Source: Patescibacteria group bacterium | Lineage (GTDB): Bacteria; Patescibacteriota; Microgenomatia; Levybacterales; UBA12049 | Assembly (NCBI GenBank): GCA_023484045.1 | Contig: JAMDAA010000022.1 | Location: 4,201 to 68,200 of the forward strand | Length of the DNA: 64,000 nt | Direction: 5' to 3' | In this document: in pieces, positions 134 through 60,326 of the stretch | Layout: every line of letters starts with the position of its first letter | Numbering within the stretch: the first letter of the stretch is position 1 | Notes under the pieces: generated by a model | Seen by the model: only the letters and a program-made list of their open reading frames with translations | Databases searched by the model: none | What the model was told of the DNA's origin: nothing | Position numbers and translations under genes: made by a program

Positions 134-2821
134 TTATTTGGAACTGAATATGGCGAATTGAATAAAAATAAATGTAAAGAAGACAATAAATACTATTGGT
201 GCTGCCATCGATAAATAATTTCTTTTATTCGGGCGGTAATATTTAAGGAGAAGAGAATTACTCACAACCGAAATTGAGCTTAGGGCCATCGCAAGTCCGG
301 CGAGTTCGGGTTTTAAAATAAGTCCGGCAAAGGCAAAAATTCTGGCCGCGATCGGTATTCCCATCACGTTATAAAAAAGCGCAAAAAACATATTTTGTTT
401 TATTTTGCCCATCGTTTCCTTCGAAAGTTTTATTGCCTGCGTGACATCTCTGAGGTCATTTTTTATGATTACAATTCCGCCTGTTTCCATCGCGACATCC
501 GTCCCCGAACCCATCGCAATCCCTAAATTAGCCTGCGCTAATGCTGGTGCATCATTAATTCCGTCCCCGACCATAGCGACCTTAAAGCCTTCGGCCTGAA
601 GTTTTTTAACCTCACTCGCCTTATCTTCGGGTAAAACTTCTGCCAAAACATTATCGATTCCGACTTGTTTCGCGATTGCATCGGCGGTAAGGCTATTATC
701 TCCTGTTATCATGTAAATTTTAATTTTCATTTTTTTAAGCTTGTCTACGGCTTCTTTAGACGATTCTTTAACCGTATCGGCAACACCAATAAGTCCTAAC
801 AATTCAGCTTGTTTACCCTGAGCTTGCCGAAGGGCTAGAATCATAACTGTCTTACCCTGCTCTTCGAGTCGCGATAATTTTCGGTCGACCCGGTCAATAG
901 AAAACCCTACAATATTATTTATTAATTTCCGGTTGCCAAAATAATATTTTCTGCCGTCGATTTTGCCTTCGATTCCGTGTCCCGGGATCGCTTTAAAGTT
1001 ATCAATATTTGTGAGTTTTAGAGATTCTTTTTCCGCTTCGTTTAGTATCGCTTCTGCGAGTGAATGTTCGGACTGCTTTTCTAAAGAAGCGGCAATTCCC
1101 AAAACTTCGTTTTCGTCAAAGCCATCGAACGTTTCGATGTCGGTTACGACTGGTTTACCGTTTGTCAAAGTTCCTGTTTTATCAAACACAATCGCATTTA
1201 CCTTGCATGCGGTTTCTAGAGGCTCTCCGCCTTTAATAAGAACTCCTTGTTCTGCACCTTTACCTGTGCCGACCATTATCGCCGTTGGTGTCGCAAGACC
1301 CAAAGCGCACGGACACGCGATAACGATTACCGAAGTTAAAGCCATCAGTGCAAAAGAAAGCGGTGCGTGCAAAATAAAAAACCAGATTATAAATGTAAGA
1401 ATCGAAATCAGAAGCACCGCCGGAACAAACCAGGACGAAATCCGGTCGGCAAAATCCTGAATCGGCGCTTTAGACCCTTGGGCTTCTTCGACAAGCCGAA
1501 TTATTCCGGCCAAAGTTGTTTCTTCACCGACGTGCGTCACGACAAATTCGAAACTGCCGGTTTTATTTATGGTGCCGCCGATAACGTTGTCACCGATTTT
1601 TTTCTCAACCGGAATACTTTCGCCTGTAATCATCGATTCATCGACAGCGGATCCTCCTTTAGATATTTTTCCGTCCGTCGGAATTTTTTCACCGGGCCTA
1701 ACTAAAATAGTATCGCCTTTTACAACCTCGTCGATTGGAATATCTCTTGTAACTCCCGCTTCGACCGCGAAGCGAGGCGAGCCGTCCGATATCACGCGTG
1801 CTGTTTTTGGCTTTAAACCCATTAATTTTTTAATCGCGTCGGATGTTTTTCCTTTTGCTTTTACTTCTAGCCATTTTCCCAAAGACACAAACGTTATAAG
1901 AAACGCCGCAGTTTCAAAATAGAGTTCCGGGATTTTCATACCCGATAAGCCGATTAATGATCTGCTATTGTAAACATAAAGCTCAAAATTTATAAGGCTG
2001 TAGAAATATGCGACACTCGTTCCGATCGCGATAAGGCTATCCATATTAAACGTTTTCATTTTCAGTGCCGACCACGTCCCTTTGTAAAAACCTTTTCCGA
2101 CATAAAATTGGATAGGAGTAGTTAAGATTAAAGAGATAAGTCCTATATACGGCATTAAAATTGTCCTGAGGGGTAGCCACGCAAAAAAATCGAGGAACAT
2201 AAAGTAAACCATCGGGATGCTTAAAATAAAACTTGTGATAAAATTCTTGCGGTAATACGCGATTTCGGATGCCTTTTTCTTTATTTCGAATTCGGTATCC
2301 GAAGGGTTAGCCACAGTTGCGCTATAGCCCGCTTTTTTTACTGCCTCGATAAGGTTTTCGGTTTTAGAAATTGACTCGTCGTAAGTAATAGACGCTTTTT
2401 CTGCCGCAAAATTTACGTGAGCTTCTTTTACGCCCGGAGTTTTATTCAAAGACTTTTCGATTAATAATGCGCAGGAAGCGCAATGCATTCCGGAGAGAGA
2501 AAGATTAACTCTCGCGGCATTAAACGAGTGTTGAACTGATGCATGATCAATAATATTTTCTGAAGCAAAGGCTTTGTGATTTTTATTGTCTCCGTTTGTA
2601 TTTTCAGAAATGATCGAAGCTTTGTATCCGGCGTCTTCGATCGCAGTAATTATTTTATCGTCCATAAGTTTATAGTTTGAGGCGACTAAAGAACCCAATC
2701 CGGATTTATGATCGATGTTAATATCTTGTACGCCGGTAAGCGAAGATAATTCTTCTTTAATAAGCGTTTCGCACGAACCACAATGCATTCCGCTTACTTT
2801 AAAGTCGATTTTCCTTTTCAT
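134..2821 (-). CDS. copA: Cu(I)-translocating P1B-type ATPase with two N-terminal HMA domains
   Basis: 895-aa ORF. Two GMHC(G/A)SC metal-binding motifs, CPC in the TM segment ([12 protein letters not shown]), DKTGTLT phosphorylation site, GDGINDAP hinge. Confidence 0.9.
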
Positions 2822-11067: not shown

Positions 11068-11210
11068 ATATTAAATACATTCGATCCATTCGACTACAGC
11101 TCAGGATCGTACTGAGTGAAATCGAATGTACGACTTTGCTCAGTATTTAATCTCTTCGAGCCTGAGCGATCGAGGCCCTCAGAGCCGAAGGCCTGAGTTC
11201 ATCGAAGGAT
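11068..11210. repeat. intergenic palindromic element (MITE/REP-like), 2 parts
   Basis: Part 1 (about 11068-11147) has terminal inverted repeats TTAAATAC...GTATTTAA and an internal hairpin CTCAGgatcgtaCTGAG. Part 2 carries CCTGAGCGA..GCCGAAGG..TCGAAGGAT motifs that recur at 46119-46190 and 57851-57868. Confidence 0.5.
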
Positions 11211-30240: not shown

Positions 30241-30313
30241 TGAGCTGCCGGGGACTCGAACCCCAAACCTACTCCTTAAGAGGGAGTTGCTCTACCAGTT
30301 GAGCTAGCAGCCC
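30241..30313 (-). tRNA. tRNA-Lys (anticodon CTT)
   Basis: Cloverleaf: acceptor GGGCTGC/GCAGCTC, anticodon stem ACTCC/GGAGT, loop CTCTTAA, T-loop TTCGAGT. No encoded CCA. Confidence 0.85.
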
Positions 30314-30425
30314 TTCGTAACTTCGTTACTCAGGATCTTCGACCCGCTTTATATTTTAGCTGTGATTTAGTATACTATAAACGTGTTATTTAGGGCAATA
30401 AGCTTCGTCTAAACGTTAAGGAAAA

Positions 30426-46078: not shown

Positions 46079-46208
46079 CTTCGATCCTTGTGGCCAAGAT
46101 GAATCACCAAATAAGTTTACCCTGAGCGAAGCCGAAGGGCTCCCTAACAGTAAGAGCCTGTCCTGAGCGAACGAAGTGAGTCGAAGGATACTTTCACCAC
46201 AAGGATCA
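46079..46208. repeat. intergenic palindromic repeat with CCTGAGCGAAGCCGAAGG motifs
   Basis: Inverted repeat GATCCTTGTGG...CCACAAGGATC flanks two copies of the CTGAGCGAA.CGAAG motif. The same motif occurs at 11158-11205 and 57851-57868. Confidence 0.45.
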
Positions 46209-54614: not shown

Positions 54615-56009
54615 ATGAATAAATACATAGCATATTGCCGAAAATCAACCGACGAGAAAGACAAACAGGTGTTATCTATTGAAGCGCAAATTGCAGAACT
54701 CAAAGAATTTGCTAAACGTGATCATTTAGAAGTTGTTGAATTTATTACCGAAGCCAAAACAGCTAAAATGCCAGGGCGTGAGCAATTTGCGCTAGTCTTA
54801 AAGAAAATTGAAAAAGGAGAAGCCCAAGGCATTATAAGTTGGCACCCAGACCGTTTAGCCAGAAATTCAATAGATGGAGGTAAAGTTATCTATTTATTGG
54901 ATACCGGAAAGTTAATAGATTTGAAATTTCCGTCTTTTTGGTTTGAAAATACTCCCCAAGGAAAATTTATGTTATCCATTGCCTTCGGCCAGTCAAAATA
55001 TTATGTGGATAATTTATCGGAAAATGTAAAGCGTGGTAATCGCCAAAAACTTCGTCGTGGTGAGTGGCCTTCAAAAGCACCATACGGATATATTAATAAT
55101 CCTAAAACCAGAGCCGTTGATGTTGACCCCGAATTATCCAAAGTTGTTAAAAAAGCTTTTCAGCTTTTTTCCGAAGGCAATAAGTCGTTTACGGAAATTT
55201 CAAACTTTATGTTTAAGTTTGGGATGAAGCGGGAAAGTTGTGGGAAACCGATTAAAGTTGATCAAATAAAACGGATGTTATCAAACAAATTTTATGTAGG
55301 AATTTTAAAGTATGCCGATGAATATTATGAAGCTTCCCATAAATGTTTCATCTCCAAACAACTTTTTAATGATGTCCAAAAGCAGGTGGAAAAAATCTTG
55401 CGTCCTAGGCAACACGGCCACGATTTTGCTTTTTCCGGTTTAGCCACTTGTGGAGAGTGCGGCGCCGCAATCACGGCAGAACAACACGTAAAACATTACA
55501 AAAATGGTAAATCCCAAACTTTTATCTATTACCGCTGTACTAAAAAGTTAAAGCCCTGTACACAAAAGTATTTACCAGAAGGTGATTTAGAAGAGCAATT
55601 AAAAAAAGTGGTGGGTGATTGCGGCTTGCACCAGGATTGGGAACCCTATTTTGAAAAATGGATGGCCGAAGATGAGAAAAAAGATCAAGCTAATTCAGAC
55701 ACAGAATTAAGAAGGCTTGGCGAGAACCAAAAGGAAATTGAAACAAAACTTAATCGCTTACTTAATGGTTATTTAGATCAAGTGGTGGAACCGGAAGTTT
55801 ACAAACAAAAGAAAAATGAATTATTTGACGAAAAACTAAAACTTACCGAGCAAATTGCCAAAGTTTCAAAGATTGGTTCGTCTTGGCTCGAACCTATGAG
55901 AGAATTCGTAATTAGCGCCTTGCAGGCGCAAAAAATCGCGCGCGTAAAAAATGAGTGCCATGATTTGGCGATCATGGCAAAAACTGTCGGCTCGAACTAT
56001 TCTTTATTT
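54615..56009 (+). CDS. large serine recombinase (resolvase/invertase catalytic domain plus recombinase and zinc-ribbon-like extension)
   Basis: N-terminus YIAYCRKSTDEKDKQVLSIEAQ with the catalytic Ser in the Y.R.S context. About 465 aa to the start of repeat B. The frame stays open through B and antisense tRNA-Lys to 56276. C-terminal Cys pairs CGECG..CTKK. Confidence 0.8.
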
Positions 56010-56116
56010 AACCGGCAACTCCGGCCAGCGTTAAAATATCCCTTTGCAGCGCTCGCCGCGATTGGGGGCGCGGCTCGCGCTGCCCCCACTTCTGCTTCAA
56101 TTTCTTTACTGGTGAG
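56010..56116. repeat. inverted repeat B (107 bp) abutting and overlapping the tRNA-Lys CCA end
   Basis: Perfect reverse complement of 54421-54526. Contains the strong hairpin GGGGGCGCGgctCGCGCtgCCCCC. Ends in CTGGTGA, shared with the tRNA 3' terminus. Confidence 0.85.
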
Positions 56117-56184
56117 CCGGACAGGATTCGAACCTGTGACCAATTGCTTAAAAGGCAACTGCTCTACCGCTGAGCTACCGGCCC
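56110..56184 (-). tRNA. tRNA-Lys (anticodon TTT) with encoded CCA
   Basis: Acceptor GGGCCGG/CCGGCTC, anticodon stem GTTGC/GCAAT, loop CTTTTAA, T-loop TTCGAAT, 3' ACCA. Confidence 0.85.
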
Positions 56185-56272
56185 GCCCACCACGCAAGCC
56201 GAGCATTGCGAGGCGTTGCGGGCAGGCCCGCTCGCCCCATCTTCACACTCAACTTTTGCAGCTTTTTAAATT

Positions 56273-56524
56273 CTAGTTTTCAAAAATTTTCTTCCAAATC
56301 CAGTTTTAAAATATTTTTCTCTTTTAATCGCCTTTTCTTTATCTAAGCACGCTTCGTAATATATTAGTCTTAAAGGTAATCTGCCTTTTGTTGCTAAGCT
56401 TTTTCTTTTTCTGTGAACTTCTAACCTTTTCTTTAAATCTTCTGTATATCCAGTATAAAGCTTACCGTCTTTTTCACTTTTAAGAACATATGTATAAACA
56501 TTACCTTTTCTCGTGATTATATCA
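56273..56524 (-). pseudogene. GIY-YIG nuclease-family gene (copy 3) lacking a canonical start codon
   Basis: Minus-strand frame encodes ITRKGNVYTYVLKSEKDGKLYTGYTEDLKKRLEVHRK...REKYFKTGFGRKFL with an in-frame TAA immediately upstream and no ATG, GTG or TTG. Not in the ORF track. Lies 88 bp upstream of tRNA-Lys on the same strand. Confidence 0.5.
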
Positions 56525-56678: not shown

Positions 56679-56699
56679 ATGCGTGAAAGGGGGTGAAAA

Positions 56700-57359
56700 A
56701 TGACAGATATTGGACAAACGTTGCTAGCATCTTTAAATAATGGACTAGCTGCGGTCGTAAGCTTTATTCCTAAATTCTTTGCCGGAGTAATAATATTAAT
56801 ACTCGGCTTTGTTGTCGCGTCGATCGTAAAACAAATCGTAATTCAAATAATAAAAGCGCTAAGAGTCGAGGCCTTACTTAAAAAGTACAGTGTTCCGGAG
56901 GGAAAAGAGGAATTTAACTGGGCGAACATTTTAGCCGAAATCGTCCGATGGTTTATAATCATAATATTTTTGATCCCGACGGCTGACGTTTGGGGACTTC
57001 CCCAAATCGTCACGGTTTTAAACACGTTTTTGCTGTATTTGCCAAACGTGTTCGTCGCGGCGATCATCGGTCTTGTCGGTTTTGTGTTTGCGCAGCTTGC
57101 TTACGATATAATGCTCGCATCGACCAAAAGTATTTCGTCAAACACTTCTAAAACTATTGCGTCCTTCACAAAATGGGCGATAACAGTTTTTGTGATTCTG
57201 GCGATTCTAACACAACTTGGGGTCGCAGCAGATTTAGTCAGAATTTTATTCACCGGATTAGTCGCGATGCTTGCGATCGCTGGCGGTATTGCGTTTGGTT
57301 TGGGCGGAAAAGACTCTGCTAAAAGTGTAATCGAAGAAGTACACAAAAAACTTAAATAA
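56700..57359 (+). CDS. membrane protein with TM-helix repeats (MscS-associated conserved TM helix type)
   Basis: 219 aa, 5-6 TM helices, repeated hydrophobic modules. Strong RBS. Confidence 0.45.
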   Translation: MTDIGQTLLASLNNGLAAVVSFIPKFFAGVIILILGFVVASIVKQIVIQIIKALRVEALLKKYSVPEGKEEFNWANILAEIVRWFIIIIFLIPTADVWGLPQIVTVLNTFLLYLPNVFVAAIIGLVGFVFAQLAYDIMLASTKSISSNTSKTIASFTKWAITVFVILAILTQLGVAADLVRILFTGLVAMLAIAGGIAFGLGGKDSAKSVIEEVHKKLK

Positions 57360-57446
57360 ATTGAACGTATTTAGGTTTTAGGATATAATATACGAACGCC
57401 GCGTTCGTCTAGTGGCGGTAATTAGGTTTTTCCCGAGACAATTTTT

Positions 57447-57520
57447 GGCGCGTTCGTCTAGAGGCCTAGGACAGATGGTTTTCATCCATCAAATCGCGGG
57501 TTCGAATCCCGCACGCGCTA
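57447..57520 (+). tRNA. tRNA-Glu (anticodon TTC)
   Basis: Acceptor GGCGCGT/ACGCGCT, anticodon stem GATGG/CCATC, loop TTTTCAT, T-loop TTCGAAT. The upstream 57399-57411 partially duplicates the 5' end (gcgttcgtctag). Confidence 0.85.
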
Positions 57521-57547
57521 CACTTCGGCAGGCTCAGTGCAAGCAAT

Positions 57548-57838
57548 ATGAATAAGCCTCAGAGTTGGTATCTTTACATGCTTCTTTGCGATCAGAAATC
57601 TTTTTATGTTGGGATTACTCCTAATCCGAAAGAAAGAATAGCCGAACATAGAAATAAAGAGTGCATCGCGACGAAAGAATTTTCTGATTTTAAAATGGTT
57701 TATTGTGAAAAGTATTTGAATAAATTTGAAGCAGTAAAAAGAGAAAAACAAATTAAAGGTTGGAGTAGAACAAAGAAGCAAATGCTTATTGAAGGAAAAT
57801 TAGGGATAAATACAAGCACTGAGTTTGTCGAAGTGTAA
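57548..57838 (+). CDS. small GIY-YIG nuclease-family protein (copy 2)
   Basis: 96 aa. WYLYMLLCDQKSFYVGITPNPKERIAEH, with a downstream conserved Arg and Glu. Starts 27 nt after tRNA-Glu. Confidence 0.75.
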   Translation: MNKPQSWYLYMLLCDQKSFYVGITPNPKERIAEHRNKECIATKEFSDFKMVYCEKYLNKFEAVKREKQIKGWSRTKKQMLIEGKLGINTSTEFVEV

Positions 57839-57874
57839 AGAGGATGAGAAGTTTACTCTGAGCGAAGCCGAAGA

Positions 57875-57892
57875 GAATCCCGCACGCGCTAC
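57875..57892 (+). other. duplicated 3'-end fragment of tRNA-Glu (T-loop to 3' end)
   Basis: gaatcccgcacgcgctac is identical to 57504-57521 of the intact tRNA. Preceded by a CTGAGCGAAGCCGAAG motif. Confidence 0.7.
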
Positions 57893-57973
57893 CATTACTG
57901 CCTAACCTTCTTGACATTCGTTTTTAAATCTCCATATACTGATAAAGATCTTATTTTTGAAAGGGGGTGAATT

Positions 57974-58396
57974 ATGGAAACAATACCTACAGATATTCAA
58001 ATTCCGACCGGGCTTCCCGAAAATATTAATCCGGCTACAGTCGCAGGTTTAGGATTACTCGCCGGTATTGGAATAACGGTGTATTTAGTAGTTATTCTCG
58101 CGGCATACATTTATCTTGCAATTTGTTTAATGACCATTTCCAATAAAACAAAACTGGGTACAGGTTGGTGGGCGTGGATACCGATTTTAAATTACGCTTT
58201 AATGCTTAAAATCGCGAAAAAGCCGATGTGGTGGATAATTTTACTTTTAATTACACCCATTAATTTATTTTTCTTTATCTGGATTTGGATGAGAATCGCG
58301 CAAGCCGTTAACAAACCAGATTGGTGGGGAATTTTAATGTTAATTCCGGTATTCAATCTCTTTGTTCCGGGTTATCTTGCATTCTCTAAAAAATAA
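57974..58396 (+). CDS. small polytopic membrane protein with internal WW..IP..N repeats
   Basis: 140 aa, 3-4 TM helices. Strong RBS GAAAGGGGGTG. Confidence 0.4.
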   Translation: METIPTDIQIPTGLPENINPATVAGLGLLAGIGITVYLVVILAAYIYLAICLMTISNKTKLGTGWWAWIPILNYALMLKIAKKPMWWIILLLITPINLFFFIWIWMRIAQAVNKPDWWGILMLIPVFNLFVPGYLAFSKK

Positions 58397-58401
58397 TATT
58401 T

Positions 58402-59106
58402 TTAAACGATATTATTTTCGGAGACCAGACGAAAATATTCGTGTCGAAATTTTAGAAGATTGATTCGTTTTAAGAAACGTTCCCAATCTTTGTGTTGTGT
58501 TTTGTGACATTTAAGTGCCTTGATTTTGATATTGATGGTATTTTTGATATTAACAGTTGTCGTAATAAGTTTATCGTCTGTACCTTCAACTTTACCAAAT
58601 ACATTATAAGATAGGCCGCTTTTGTTGAATTGTTCGATTAATGATTTCGGTGTTACGGTGTAATAAAGCCTAACGTGCTTGTCGGATATCTTTTGGTATT
58701 CAAAAAAGGCTATTGTCGTGCTTTTGTGCATTTGAATGTGATCGGGATGCTTTGAACCACCTTCTTCATTAAATGTAATCACAGCATCGGGTTTTTCTTT
58801 TTTAAAAATCTCTAAAACTTTTTTTGCGATAGTTTTTGAGTCGATTTTATGGAGAGTGCCATCGATCAGTCCTAAAAAGTAAATCTTTGATATTCCTAAA
58901 ATTTTTGCGGCATTTCGTAACTCTTTTTCGCGAATTTTTCCGAGCTTTTCTTTCGTTGTAAGCGGAGGGTTCCCGACTTGACCAGCTTCTCCCTTAGTCG
59001 CAGTAATAAGTTTTACAGACACTCCGCGATTTGTCAGATAAGCTATTGCCCCGCCGCTTGAAAAAGATTCGTCGTCGGGATGGGCAAAAACAAAAATTAC
59101 TTTCAT
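58402..59106 (-). CDS. PIG-L/LmbE-family N-acetylglucosaminyl deacetylase
   Basis: VIFVFAHPDDESFSSGGAIA N-terminal signature and a conserved HPDH. Confidence 0.75.
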   Translation of the reverse strand: MKVIFVFAHPDDESFSSGGAIAYLTNRGVSVKLITATKGEAGQVGNPPLTTKEKLGKIREKELRNAAKILGISKIYFLGLIDGTLHKIDSKTIAKKVLEIFKKEKPDAVITFNEEGGSKHPDHIQMHKSTTIAFFEYQKISDKHVRLYYTVTPKSLIEQFNKSGLSYNVFGKVEGTDDKLITTTVNIKNTINIKIKALKCHKTQHKDWERFLKRINLLKFRHEYFRLVSENNIV

Positions 59107-59150
59107 ATTTATATTATATCATTTACAATATGTAATTAAGTTAACAACAT

Positions 59151-60326
59151 ATGCTAATCTATAATTCATTATCAGACAAAAAAGAAACATTTAAACCATT
59201 ATCGAATAAAACGGTCAAAATCTATGTATGCGGAATAACCCCGTATGATACAACGCACCTCGGTCACGCATTTACTTACGTTTTTTTCGATACCTTAGTC
59301 CGTTATCTAAAATTTAAGGATTATAAAATTATTTATACCCAAAACGTTACGGATATCGACGACGATATTTTAAAAAAAGCAAAAGAAGTAAATCAGGACT
59401 GGAAACTTTTGGGAAAATATTGGACCGATAAATTTCTGAATAACTTAAAACAATTAAATATAGAGCTTCCGACTCACTACACTAAGGCTACTGACTCGAT
59501 TGATATAATGATTAAAATTATTTCTAAATTACTTTTAATAAAATTCGCGTATGAAAAAAGCGGCAACGTGTATTTTGATATCAGTAAAGTAAAAAAATAT
59601 GGATCACTTTCAAAATTCGGTGAGAAACAAATGATTTTAATCTCTAAAGAACGCGGTGGAAATCCTAACGATCCTTTGAAAAAAAATCCCCTCGATTTTT
59701 TGTTGTGGCAGAAAAGTGCTAAAAATGAACCATTTTGGAAAAGTCCGTGGTCTGATGGCCGACCCGGATGGCATATTGAATGCTCGGCGATGATAAATAA
59801 ATATTTAGGAAACAGAATCGATATTCACGGCGGAGGCAGGGATTTAATTTTTCCTCATCACGAAAGTGAAATCGCACAATCAGAGAGCTTTACGGGCAAA
59901 AAACCGTTTGTTAAATATTGGATGCACACGGCGATGCTTTTATATAAGCATGAGAAAATGTCAAAATCTTTAGGAAACTTAGTGATGATCGACGATTTAT
60001 TAAAAAAATATTCTGCGAATGAGATTCGATATGTTTTACTCTCGCACCATTACCGCGTCCCTTGGGAATACGACGAAACGATGTTCTCGAAGGCAAAACG
60101 ATCGTTGAATCTAATTAACAATGTATTAAAGGCTAAAAATAATAAATCAAAAAAGGATAAAGATTCACTTGAGCAGTTCTCAAAATATATGGATAATGAT
60201 TTTGATATACCAAAGGTTCTTTCTTTAATCCTGAACTTGTCAAAAGATAAAAGTAACTCGGCTTCGATCAAAAAAATAATGTCGATCCTCGGTTTCTCCT
60301 TGCAAGGCCTCCCCTTGCGAGGCTAA
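59151..60326 (+). CDS. cysS: cysteinyl-tRNA synthetase (short form)
   Basis: Class I HIGH (TTHLGHAF) and KMSKS (KMSKSLGN). Zinc-binding Cys in CGITPYD and HIECSAM contexts typical of CysRS. Confidence 0.8.
   Translation: MLIYNSLSDKKETFKPLSNKTVKIYVCGITPYDTTHLGHAFTYVFFDTLVRYLKFKDYKIIYTQNVTDIDDDILKKAKEVNQDWKLLGKYWTDKFLNNLKQLNIELPTHYTKATDSIDIMIKIISKLLLIKFAYEKSGNVYFDISKVKKYGSLSKFGEKQMILISKERGGNPNDPLKKNPLDFLLWQKSAKNEPFWKSPWSDGRPGWHIECSAMINKYLGNRIDIHGGGRDLIFPHHESEIAQSESFTGKKPFVKYWMHTAMLLYKHEKMSKSLGNLVMIDDLLKKYSANEIRYVLLSHHYRVPWEYDETMFSKAKRSLNLINNVLKAKNNKSKKDKDSLEQFSKYMDNDFDIPKVLSLILNLSKDKSNSASIKKIMSILGFSLQGLPLRG

Follow-up and report, generated by a model that had tools for sequence, protein, structure and literature searches.

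Why does a gene for a 96-residue GIY-YIG nuclease lie directly behind a glutamate transfer RNA (tRNA) gene, and why does the 3' end of that tRNA gene reappear just past the nuclease gene? The arrangement is found in a 64,000-nucleotide (nt) stretch of a Patescibacteria genome (GCA_023484045.1, contig JAMDAA010000022.1, positions 4,201 to 68,200), hereafter called the window. A first-pass annotation had taken it for a mobile cassette that targets tRNA genes and duplicates its target site. Our analysis leads to a related answer, to which we give a probability of about 0.7: the unit would be a selfish mobile cassette of about 330-400 base pairs (bp), targeting tRNA 3' ends and widespread in Patescibacteria. 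Recurrence of the unit, repeats that match the adjacent tRNA and an empty site uphold the first proposal, while the duplication at insertion still has to be deduced; if the cassette is selfish, a repeat made at insertion and homing with an inherited repeat appear about equally probable.

In the window, the cassette and the tRNA gene that adjoins it consist of the following features.

57447-57521, plus strand: functional tRNA-Glu(TTC), an allele with a G2:C71 pair and with an anticodon stem and T stem unlike those of syntenic relatives.
57504-57521, plus strand: copy 1 of a direct repeat, GAATCCCGCACGCGCTAC, inside the tRNA gene (tRNA positions 57-74).
57521-57539, plus strand: left-end motif, CACT-TCGGCAGGCTC-AGTG, whose first C is C74 of the tRNA; it is kept beside the tRNA 3' end in 49 loci.
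57548-57838, plus strand: open reading frame (ORF) of the 96-residue GIY-YIG nuclease, with its ATG at 57548; UPF0213/SLX1-like, catalytic domain only.
57816-57837, plus strand: inner right motif, an inverted copy of the left end (CACT-GAGTTTGTCGA-AGTG at 57817-57835) that encodes the conserved C-terminus STEFVEV.
57850-57875, plus strand: outer right-end motif, AGTTTAC followed by CTCT-GAGCGAAGCCGA-AGAG (57856-57875), an inverted copy that abuts repeat copy 2.
57875-57892, plus strand: copy 2 of the direct repeat, GAATCCCGCACGCGCTAC, a fragment of tRNA positions 57-74 followed by CA, so that ACCA is encoded.

The tRNA gene was called at 57447-57521 (+) by ARAGORN and at 57447-57520 by Rfam (59.5 bits), within 1 nt of its first-pass position (57447-57520), and the GIY-YIG gene noted just past it was recovered as ORF 57548-57838 (Pfam E=5e-16). 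The ATG of this ORF lies 26 nt past the tRNA-Glu end, on the same strand. The 18-nt repeat of the tRNA 3' end, described earlier as starting at the T-loop, is exact: its copies at 57504-57521 and 57875-57892 are 100% identical and run from T-loop G57 to C74, the base after the discriminator. Even with up to three mismatches allowed, GAATCCCGCACGCGCTAC has just two matches in the 64 kilobases (kb), and two matches were obtained in 0 of 100 shuffled sequences. The fragment might have belonged to a longer unrelated repeat; this was tested and is not the case. As the unit sits between two copies of the T-loop-to-3'-end segment, the tRNA stays intact.

The left-end motif consists of two 4-nt inverted arms around an 11-nt core and follows directly on the tRNA-Glu 3' end. 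The inner right motif can pair over 22 nt with the left end (57519-57540, G-U/G-T pairs counted), and this pairing is the closing helix in both the minimum free energy and the centroid folds, whether the segment is folded as RNA or as DNA. The last G of the outer right-end motif is also G57 of repeat copy 2. The motif that the first reading had placed before the repeat copy, tttactCTGAGCGAAGCCGAAGa, is present at 57852-57874; it proved to be a conserved element end and to recur in the window, its 16-mer being found again at 46122-46137.

No promoter-like or terminator-like site was found between tRNA-Glu and the GIY-YIG ORF, and the sole promoter-like site ahead of the ORF is TTGAAC-17-TATAAT at 57361-57389, upstream of the tRNA region. 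This suggests that the nuclease gene would have to be transcribed by read-through from the tRNA promoter. Rfam searches of the whole window (gathering threshold) and of 57300-58000 (E up to 5) gave tRNA matches only. A hammerhead-like reading of GGATGAG...CGAA was considered and rejected, as this stretch is the end of an ancestral ORF (GGATGA); the ORF in the window stops short of the ancestral stop.

The protein matches the Pfam GIY-YIG family PF01541 over residues 7-77 (E=5.1e-16, 59.2 bits for a cut-off of 22.6), and Y10, Y20, G22, R30, H34, E66 and N88 are invariant among 29 homologues. The Tyr pair, Arg, His, Glu and Asn presumably have the catalytic roles assigned to their counterparts in I-TevI and UvrC. 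Compared with solved structures, the family profile scored best with 1zg2 (BH0048, E=8.7e-12) and 1ywl (EF2693, E=7.7e-10), and weakly with SLX1 (E=0.003). With its single domain and 96 residues the protein fits the UPF0213/YhbQ-like size range of 90-110 residues. No domain beyond GIY-YIG, such as the DNA-binding module of I-TevI or Seg proteins, was detected in the 96 residues, which would suit a nuclease that recognizes DNA by structure and not by sequence. NCBIfam, PHROGs and PADLOC models gave no match to the protein, so that none of the anti-phage defence systems known to PADLOC was recognized. Among cassette nucleases the ratio of non-synonymous to synonymous divergence (dN/dS) is 0.06-0.21 and dS is about 1-2, which indicates purifying selection with synonymous sites near saturation. 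A profile search of 1.84 billion cluster representatives retrieved 2344 proteins at E<=1e-10 and 11 at E<=1e-30; by these scores the tight nuclease subfamily is compact and nested in a large family. Many homologue entries carry N-terminal extensions that fit ORF calls running through the left motif (P0086, for example, starts ...ALRQAQCR).

The first argument for mobility is that the same layout recurs behind different tRNA genes. The homologue alignment led to 80 loci from species-representative genomes, mostly Patescibacteria (numbered with an L below). In about 35 of these 80 loci a tRNA gene lies on the same strand, 27-100 nt upstream of the GIY-YIG homologue; among these are tRNAs for Asn, His, Asp and Met, for two anticodons each of Glu and Gln, and for several of Ser. 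In most tRNA-linked loci, the last 16-18 nt of the local tRNA reappear 30-90 nt past the ORF. The layout of tRNA, same-strand GIY-YIG gene and copy of tRNA positions 57/59 to 74/76 was found with at least 10 tRNA types, Lys among them, in dozens of Patescibacteria, in units of 330-400 nt with one GIY-YIG ORF each. The left-end motif is present in 49 loci. The 16 nt up to and including C74 are repeated downstream perfectly (16/16) in 24 of them and with at least 13/16 matches in 33, and the upstream control region of the same loci never gave more than 11/16. Of 29 GIY-associated tRNAs, 22 had a 3' repeat of 14 nt or more, compared with 4 of 36 other tRNAs in the same loci. Loci in which ARAGORN called no tRNA keep the same junctions, and some of them seem to hold intron-bearing or decayed tRNAs.

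Junction sequences are conserved from one tRNA type to another, and the cassette ends fall into two subfamilies with a common plan. In the first, the left end is (A)CTTCGGCAAGCTCAGTGCAAGC, the right end is GTTTACCCTGAG-N5-CCGAAGG abutting the tRNA fragment, and the repeat starts at position 57 or 58; in the second, the left end is CCTTCGACAAGCTCAGGGTTT, the right end is GGTGAGCCTGTCGAACC, and the repeat starts at 59. Where the tRNA gene encodes CCA (L048, L050), the repeat extends from 59 to 76. It was observed that position 74 is a C in 71 of 71 tRNA genes of loci L003-L082 and the window, of which just 19 encode a complete CCA. The left motif of the cassette therefore always closes on a C; the pattern may also bear on tRNA 3' processing in these bacteria. 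Outside Patescibacteria, in Nitrospirota, Ignavibacteria, Chlorobiota, Nitrospinota, Chloroflexota and Spirochaetales (L058, L063, L064, L067, L069, L071, L072, L079), small GIY-YIG genes are ringed by copies of the core motif, for example CCTTCGACAAGCTCAGGGTGAC and GTCATCCTGAGCTTGTCGAAGGATG. An adjacent tRNA is usually absent there; motif and nuclease are therefore associated over a wider range than that of tRNA targeting.

The second argument is an empty site. The DUF5684 protein encoded next to the cassette has an 82%-identical homologue on contig L089 (GCA_023485715.1), where the gene order is that of the window: MscS-like gene, tRNA-Glu(TTC), DUF5684, PIG-L and cysteinyl-tRNA synthetase. 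In L089 the tRNA-Glu has no cassette, and the first two protein genes are 193 nt apart, compared with 614 nt in the window. The first-pass annotation had proposed related tRNA-Glu loci as the place to look for presence or absence of the cassette, and L089 bears it out, the boundary coinciding exactly with the end of the tRNA. A tRNA-Glu without a cassette is also found in L086 and L087, which are more distant relatives. When the window is aligned with L089, two insertions are seen: one of 371 nt, beginning exactly after ...CTAC (C74), and one of 49 nt within the tRNA 5' region. The features defined by this alignment are as follows.

57361-57389, plus strand: promoter-like site TTGAAC-17-TATAAT upstream of the tRNA region, kept in L089.
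57398-57416, plus strand: 5'-end remnant of the resident tRNA-Glu, GCCGCGTTCGTCTAGTGGC (tRNA positions 1-19), with 19/19 identity to the L089 tRNA-Glu.
57417-57446, plus strand: 30-nt spacer without counterpart in L089, whose homology ends at 57416.
57522-57892, plus strand: the 371-nt segment missing from the L089 empty site in the alignment, equal to the cassette and one repeat copy.
57911-57940, plus strand: promoter-like site of the downstream DUF5684 gene, in the host flank, where the insert region is over; it is also kept in L089.
Junction sequence of the empty tRNA-Glu site: GGTTCGAATCCCGCACGCGCTACCATTACTG.

The 49-nt insertion changes the meaning of a 5' duplication that had been noted upstream of the tRNA. 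The fragment CGCGTTCGTCTAGTGGC (57400-57416) matches the tRNA gene (57449-57465) at 16 of 17 positions, and the full fragment, 57398-57416, is 19 nt long; the duplication is real and longer than first claimed, but it does not belong with the 3' duplication. All its 19 nt agree with the start of the L089 tRNA-Glu, and it stands at an equal distance from the shared promoter. At position 2 this remnant has a C, and C2 finds no partner in C71, the base present both in the window's functional tRNA allele and in the downstream 18-mer. By this shared C71, tRNA, cassette and repeat copy 2 belong together. We infer that a foreign tRNA-Glu arrived with the cassette and replaced the resident tRNA-Glu, of which the first 19 nt were left as a scar. 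The 30-nt spacer (57417-57446) is probably the upstream flank brought by the incoming tRNA; a search of the retrieved loci for its donor gave no match.

DNA identity with L089 is 88% to the left of the insert (56687-57416) and 77% to the right (57904-60107). The incoming DNA could have reached well to the right of the cassette, or the two sides could merely be under different constraints. The window sequence was also assembled from SRR10267473 and SRR10252151, and two contigs, L001 and L002, each from a sequencing run of its own, match the window with 100% identity and start at the same place, 57443, 4 nt before the tRNA. This shared contig start hints at a sequence variant or assembly branch at the junction of remnant and incoming tRNA. 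In L083 (3855-4290), a relative with a 70%-identical MscS-like protein, the tRNA-Glu is preceded by a different GIY-YIG-like sequence, and the T arm and acceptor leftover of another tRNA-Glu allele is found about 75 nt past the tRNA-Glu; this locus looks like another replaced tRNA.

Third, several loci carry signs of movement. The closest protein relative of the window nuclease, P0002 (76% amino acid identity, L091), lies behind tRNA-Lys(TTT), with GAATCCTGTACGGCTCAC on both sides and a perfect 18-nt repeat. Between these close relatives the tRNA switches from Glu to Lys, and the change of tRNA therefore comes with a new, perfectly matching repeat. In a protein tree (unweighted pair group method with arithmetic mean, UPGMA; the truncated ORF of L016 distorts nearest-neighbour counts where it is the neighbour), tRNA types cluster partly, and Asn, Glu and Gln each occur in several clades and are polyphyletic. 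An 18-nt fragment free of constraint and of the same age as the split between cassettes would be expected to decay. Half of the repeats are perfect even though dS among the nucleases is about 1-2, which would point to recent insertion, to re-insertion or to concerted evolution. L036 contains two tandem units identical at 341 of 341 positions, the only near-identical pair of copies seen, and L010 has a second, truncated unit. Further truncated copies of the cassette are present in L016, L027, L033, L051 and L067. An element of 79 nt without an ORF, with the same bounding motifs, lies in L050 between copies 2 and 3 of the same 18-nt repeat; a scan for ORF-less motif pairs with flanking repeats retrieved L050 and L076 only. 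At 555-801 of L091, past the tRNA-Lys cassette and its repeat, there are more motif copies and the start of a different GIY-YIG gene, and one tRNA tail seems able to gather several cassettes.

The 11-nt core TCG(G/A)CNNNCTC occurs 173 times over all loci, and the arms that flank these 173 cores are Watson-Crick complementary in 71-77% of cases at positions 1-4, in 55% at position 5 and in about 22% farther out. Many arm types were found, among them CACT/AGTG, CCCT/AGGG, ATCCT/AGGAT and ATGGT/ACCAT. Compared over 21 nt in 33 loci, the left end is 87.7% complementary to the inner right motif, with 8 pairs changed on both sides, and 0 of 500 shuffles came up to this; here the register of the right arm was picked for complementarity, and one arm is coding. 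In this pairing, G:T oppositions outnumber A:C oppositions on the sense strand (78 versus 29); because one arm is coding, the excess is no more than suggestive of an RNA helix. Three modes of action are conceivable for the motifs: hairpins or cruciforms stabilized by protein, dyads bound in duplex DNA, or the long-range helix of a single strand.

Motif copies are also present without a nuclease gene: six were found in the window, for 0.3 expected. At 46108-46189, in intergenic DNA, GTTTACCCTGAGCGAAGCCGAAGGG, containing the 16-mer shared with the cassette right end, is followed by a long-loop variant. Another intergenic cluster (11150-11210) has three motif-like pieces, and a nuclease-less copy at 30312-30333 (minus strand) abuts the 5' end of tRNA-Lys(ctt). 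At 811-834, CCCTTCGGCAAGCTCAGGGTAAAC lies in frame in the ORF of a CopA-type P-ATPase (134-2821, minus strand) and encodes LRQAQGK. An alignment with A. fulgidus CopA (2b8e, 3a1c) places a 6-residue insertion of the window protein exactly at the motif. The CopA case suggests that the short motif can insert into coding DNA by itself.

How might such a cassette move? The mechanism that we would propose starts from a resemblance between the T-loop TTCGAAT and the motif core (TCGG/A...). The nuclease would recognize both the dyad motif that bounds the element and the T arm of tRNA genes, which is built in a similar way, and would break one strand at about position 57-59 and the other after position 74. 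Since T-loop and position 74 are equally far apart in all tRNAs, this distance would act as a ruler, so that the element lands at a tRNA end whatever its sequence. Insertion followed by fill-in would then duplicate the 16-18 nt between the breaks. As the restored tRNA would still be a target, tandem arrays could form. Spread between genomes might also occur by break repair or recombination with a filled homologous locus, which would drag the tRNA along.

A stronger form of this proposal is offered more tentatively, since we think it somewhat less likely to be right than wrong. The cassette might represent a new class of autonomous transposable element, the smallest known (about 350 bp), whose sole protein, a 96-residue structure-specific GIY-YIG nuclease, would recognize the end dyads and the look-alike T arm and make breaks 16-18 nt apart by the T-loop-to-74 ruler; joining and fill-in would be left to host repair, and the motif would itself move as a miniature repeat, through intergenic DNA and even, in frame, into genes.

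Several observations weigh against the selfish mobile cassette. In the all-against-all comparison of cassette DNA among species representatives, no pair exceeded 80% identity, which gives no direct indication of very recent movement from one species to another. The second repeat copy is diverged, or the upstream tRNA unrecognizable, in about a third of the loci. The empty site of L089 could equally have arisen by precise loss between the repeats. Isolated hairpins with 4-bp arms and an 11-nt loop have about -1 kcal/mol and are no better than shuffles; local hairpins as stable structures were rejected on these thermodynamic grounds, and what speaks for them is the covariation of the arms, which could equally reflect a protein that binds duplex DNA with dyad symmetry. 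Finally, nuclease action, cleavage site and transposition are steps that we infer from sequence. To our knowledge, a lone GIY-YIG domain hydrolyses DNA and is not known to join it, so that insertion would need host repair or ligation.

Among the alternatives, a pure homing endonuclease gene survives best, and we still consider it unlikely. The nuclease would cut cassette-free alleles of the same tRNA gene, which would be repaired from the filled allele; the 18-nt fragment would be an inherited homology arm, and new targets would be reached through rare illegitimate events. The co-conversion seen in the window, where tRNA-Glu allele, cassette and repeat copy 2 differ from the resident type and a 19-nt remnant of the latter survives, is what homing would leave behind. 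The partial clustering of proteins by tRNA type agrees with it as well, and so do tRNA 5' fragments upstream of 8 of 29 associated tRNAs, which suggest sloppy break repair; a precedent comes from phage T4, whose homing endonuclease SegB is a free-standing GIY-YIG protein encoded in a tRNA cluster (PMC2330249). However, the precise 57-59 to 74/76 repeat is found in at least 10 tRNA species, and perfect repeats across the Glu/Lys switch (76% amino acid identity) fit a mechanism that creates the repeat better than a repeat that is inherited. The filled allele keeps an intact tRNA, and homing does not explain why it would be immune to cleavage by its own nuclease. The 96 residues comprise the catalytic domain and lack the DNA-binding domain of known GIY-YIG homing enzymes, and inverted end motifs and an ORF-less derivative are foreign to homing endonuclease genes.

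Less probable still is a tRNA-linked nuclease that serves the host and does not move, with repeat and motifs acting in RNA, in processing, in messenger RNA stabilization by the 22-bp helix, or as a decoy tRNA 3' end. Such a gene would account for the strong purifying selection, for the obligatory co-transcription from the tRNA promoter, for the left/inner-right helix of the minimum free energy and centroid folds (RNA z-score -3.0) and for the 78 to 29 excess of G:T over A:C on the sense strand. It does not account for the close syntenic relative L089 that lacks the cassette, for the different tRNAs found upstream in different genomes, for the truncated copies (L016, L027, L033, L051, L067) and the shortened ORF of the window itself, or for the identical tandem copies of L036. 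A motif present in both orientations, in intergenic DNA and in frame in copA, and Rfam matches limited to tRNA, also argue against this view.

It is very improbable that the repeat is a classical attachment-site (att) duplication, left by an element that a recombinase inserted, such as the large serine recombinase encoded 1.2 kb upstream (ORF 54615-56276). A block of identity from the T-loop to the 3' end is the typical trace of T-loop-targeting integrases. However, neither the 371 nt bounded by the repeats nor the other 330-400-nt loci contain a recombinase, a host gene stands between the cassette and the serine recombinase, which is located at another tRNA (Lys), and the att site would need to match each of at least 10 tRNAs. 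The least credible alternative is an intron-like insert at the T-loop, removed from the RNA so that the downstream fragment is the true 3' end: pairing of the left and right motifs is possible and would place the repeat copies side by side, and Patescibacteria are rich in tRNA group I introns (PMC13011429), but these lie at position 35/36 and not in the T-loop (PMC13011429), no ribozyme family was matched with Rfam up to E=5, and the upstream tRNA is complete and scores normally without splicing.

Other GIY-YIG and recombinase features were observed close to the cassette. A second GIY-YIG reading frame, of another subfamily, occupies 56266-56499 on the minus strand (Pfam E=2e-14); lacking an in-frame ATG, GTG or TTG start, it has probably become a pseudogene by frameshift. 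A tRNA-Lys(ttt) (56110-56184, minus strand) follows 82 nt downstream on the same strand, an arrangement that we call the 5' class and that is intact in L092 (870-1121), L033 and L008. In these three loci the gene is preceded by a tRNA-Asn 5' fragment broken by the hairpin TCCGCCAG(C/T)TGGCGGA, and in L092 the tRNA-Asn has GIY-YIG genes on both sides. The serine recombinase ORF (54615-56276, plus strand; Resolvase, Recombinase and Zn-ribbon domains) runs at its 3' end antisense through tRNA-Lys(ttt), where it may mark the edge of an integrated element.

If the selfish mobile cassette is real, it would explain the many small genes annotated as 'GIY-YIG nuclease family' beside tRNAs in Patescibacteria. 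It would make tRNA genes universal, harmless and strongly transcribed landing sites, and would account for tRNA fragments and replaced tRNA alleles in reduced genomes. It would also provide a nuclease with a predicted substrate and predicted cut positions, which may have a simple, structure-guided specificity. For annotation, such cassettes would be a source of contig breaks, of N-terminally over-extended ORF calls and of pseudo-tRNA fragments in metagenome-assembled genomes.

How does the cassette compare with known systems? Phage T4 SegB is a free-standing GIY-YIG homing endonuclease within a tRNA gene cluster (PMC2330249; see also PMC13096335). Like segB, the cassette would be a selfish GIY-YIG gene among tRNA genes, inherited with flanking tRNA sequence, and in both cases breaks in the tRNA region would be tied to local duplications. 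In contrast, Seg proteins have about 200 residues or more and a separate DNA-binding domain, compared with 96 residues and a catalytic domain in the cassette protein, and Seg genes are phage genes without inverted end motifs or flanking target repeats, whereas the cassette is chromosomal in Patescibacteria. Insertions in ribosomal RNA (rRNA) genes of the Candidate Phyla Radiation (CPR) also encode GIY-YIG proteins and are neither group I nor group II introns (PMC11270868). They share with the cassette the bacterial group, the small GIY-YIG genes in structured-RNA genes and the lack of a ribozyme; they interrupt rRNA genes, are described as sparse, and tRNA is not mentioned in that paper (PMC11270868).

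The protein itself is most like UPF0213/YhbQ (1zg2 BH0048 and 1ywl EF2693, the best structure matches), single-domain GIY-YIG proteins of about 100 residues. SLX1 is a structure-specific endonuclease that resolves branched DNA. For neither UPF0213 nor SLX1 has a mobile context been described, nor any tie to tRNA genes, end motifs or flanking repeats. In architecture, the cassette resembles the REP/REPIN-RAYT and IS200/IS605 systems, which have one small nuclease gene between inverted short palindromic motifs, ORF-less doublets and solo motif copies dispersed in the genome. However, those systems use HUH tyrosine transposases and a short target motif and make no target duplication, whereas the cassette has a GIY-YIG domain only (by Pfam, no HUH/Y1), a tRNA 3'-end target and a 16-18-nt flanking repeat. 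With integrative elements that target the T-loop through tyrosine integrases it shares the T-loop-to-3'-end direct repeat and the restored tRNA gene; it differs from them in having no integrase, in its size (about 370 bp, not kilobases) and in its use of many tRNAs, each with a matching repeat.

No known transposase class (DDE, HUH, serine or tyrosine) is encoded in the cassette, whose sole ORF is the GIY-YIG gene. With neither a DNA-binding module nor a known transposase or integrase, it therefore could not be filed in any of the mobile classes tested. In full-text literature, which leaves most subscription journals outside, no published GIY-YIG cassettes at tRNA 3' ends or GIY-YIG genes with palindromic flanks were found, and this very small, probably mobile tRNA-targeting element is apparently undescribed. 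It has the presence/absence polymorphism (L089) and the co-conversion of flanking tRNA that are traits of homing genes, together with the terminal inverted repeats of transposons and site-specific repeats of 16-18 nt at Glu, Asn, Gln, Ser, His, Asp and Lys tRNAs. In conclusion, the cassette would be a compact unit that joins homing traits (a selfish nuclease, tRNA co-conversion) with transposon traits (inverted ends, flanking repeats), and the nearest description of its workings is a hybrid of homing endonuclease gene and small transposon.

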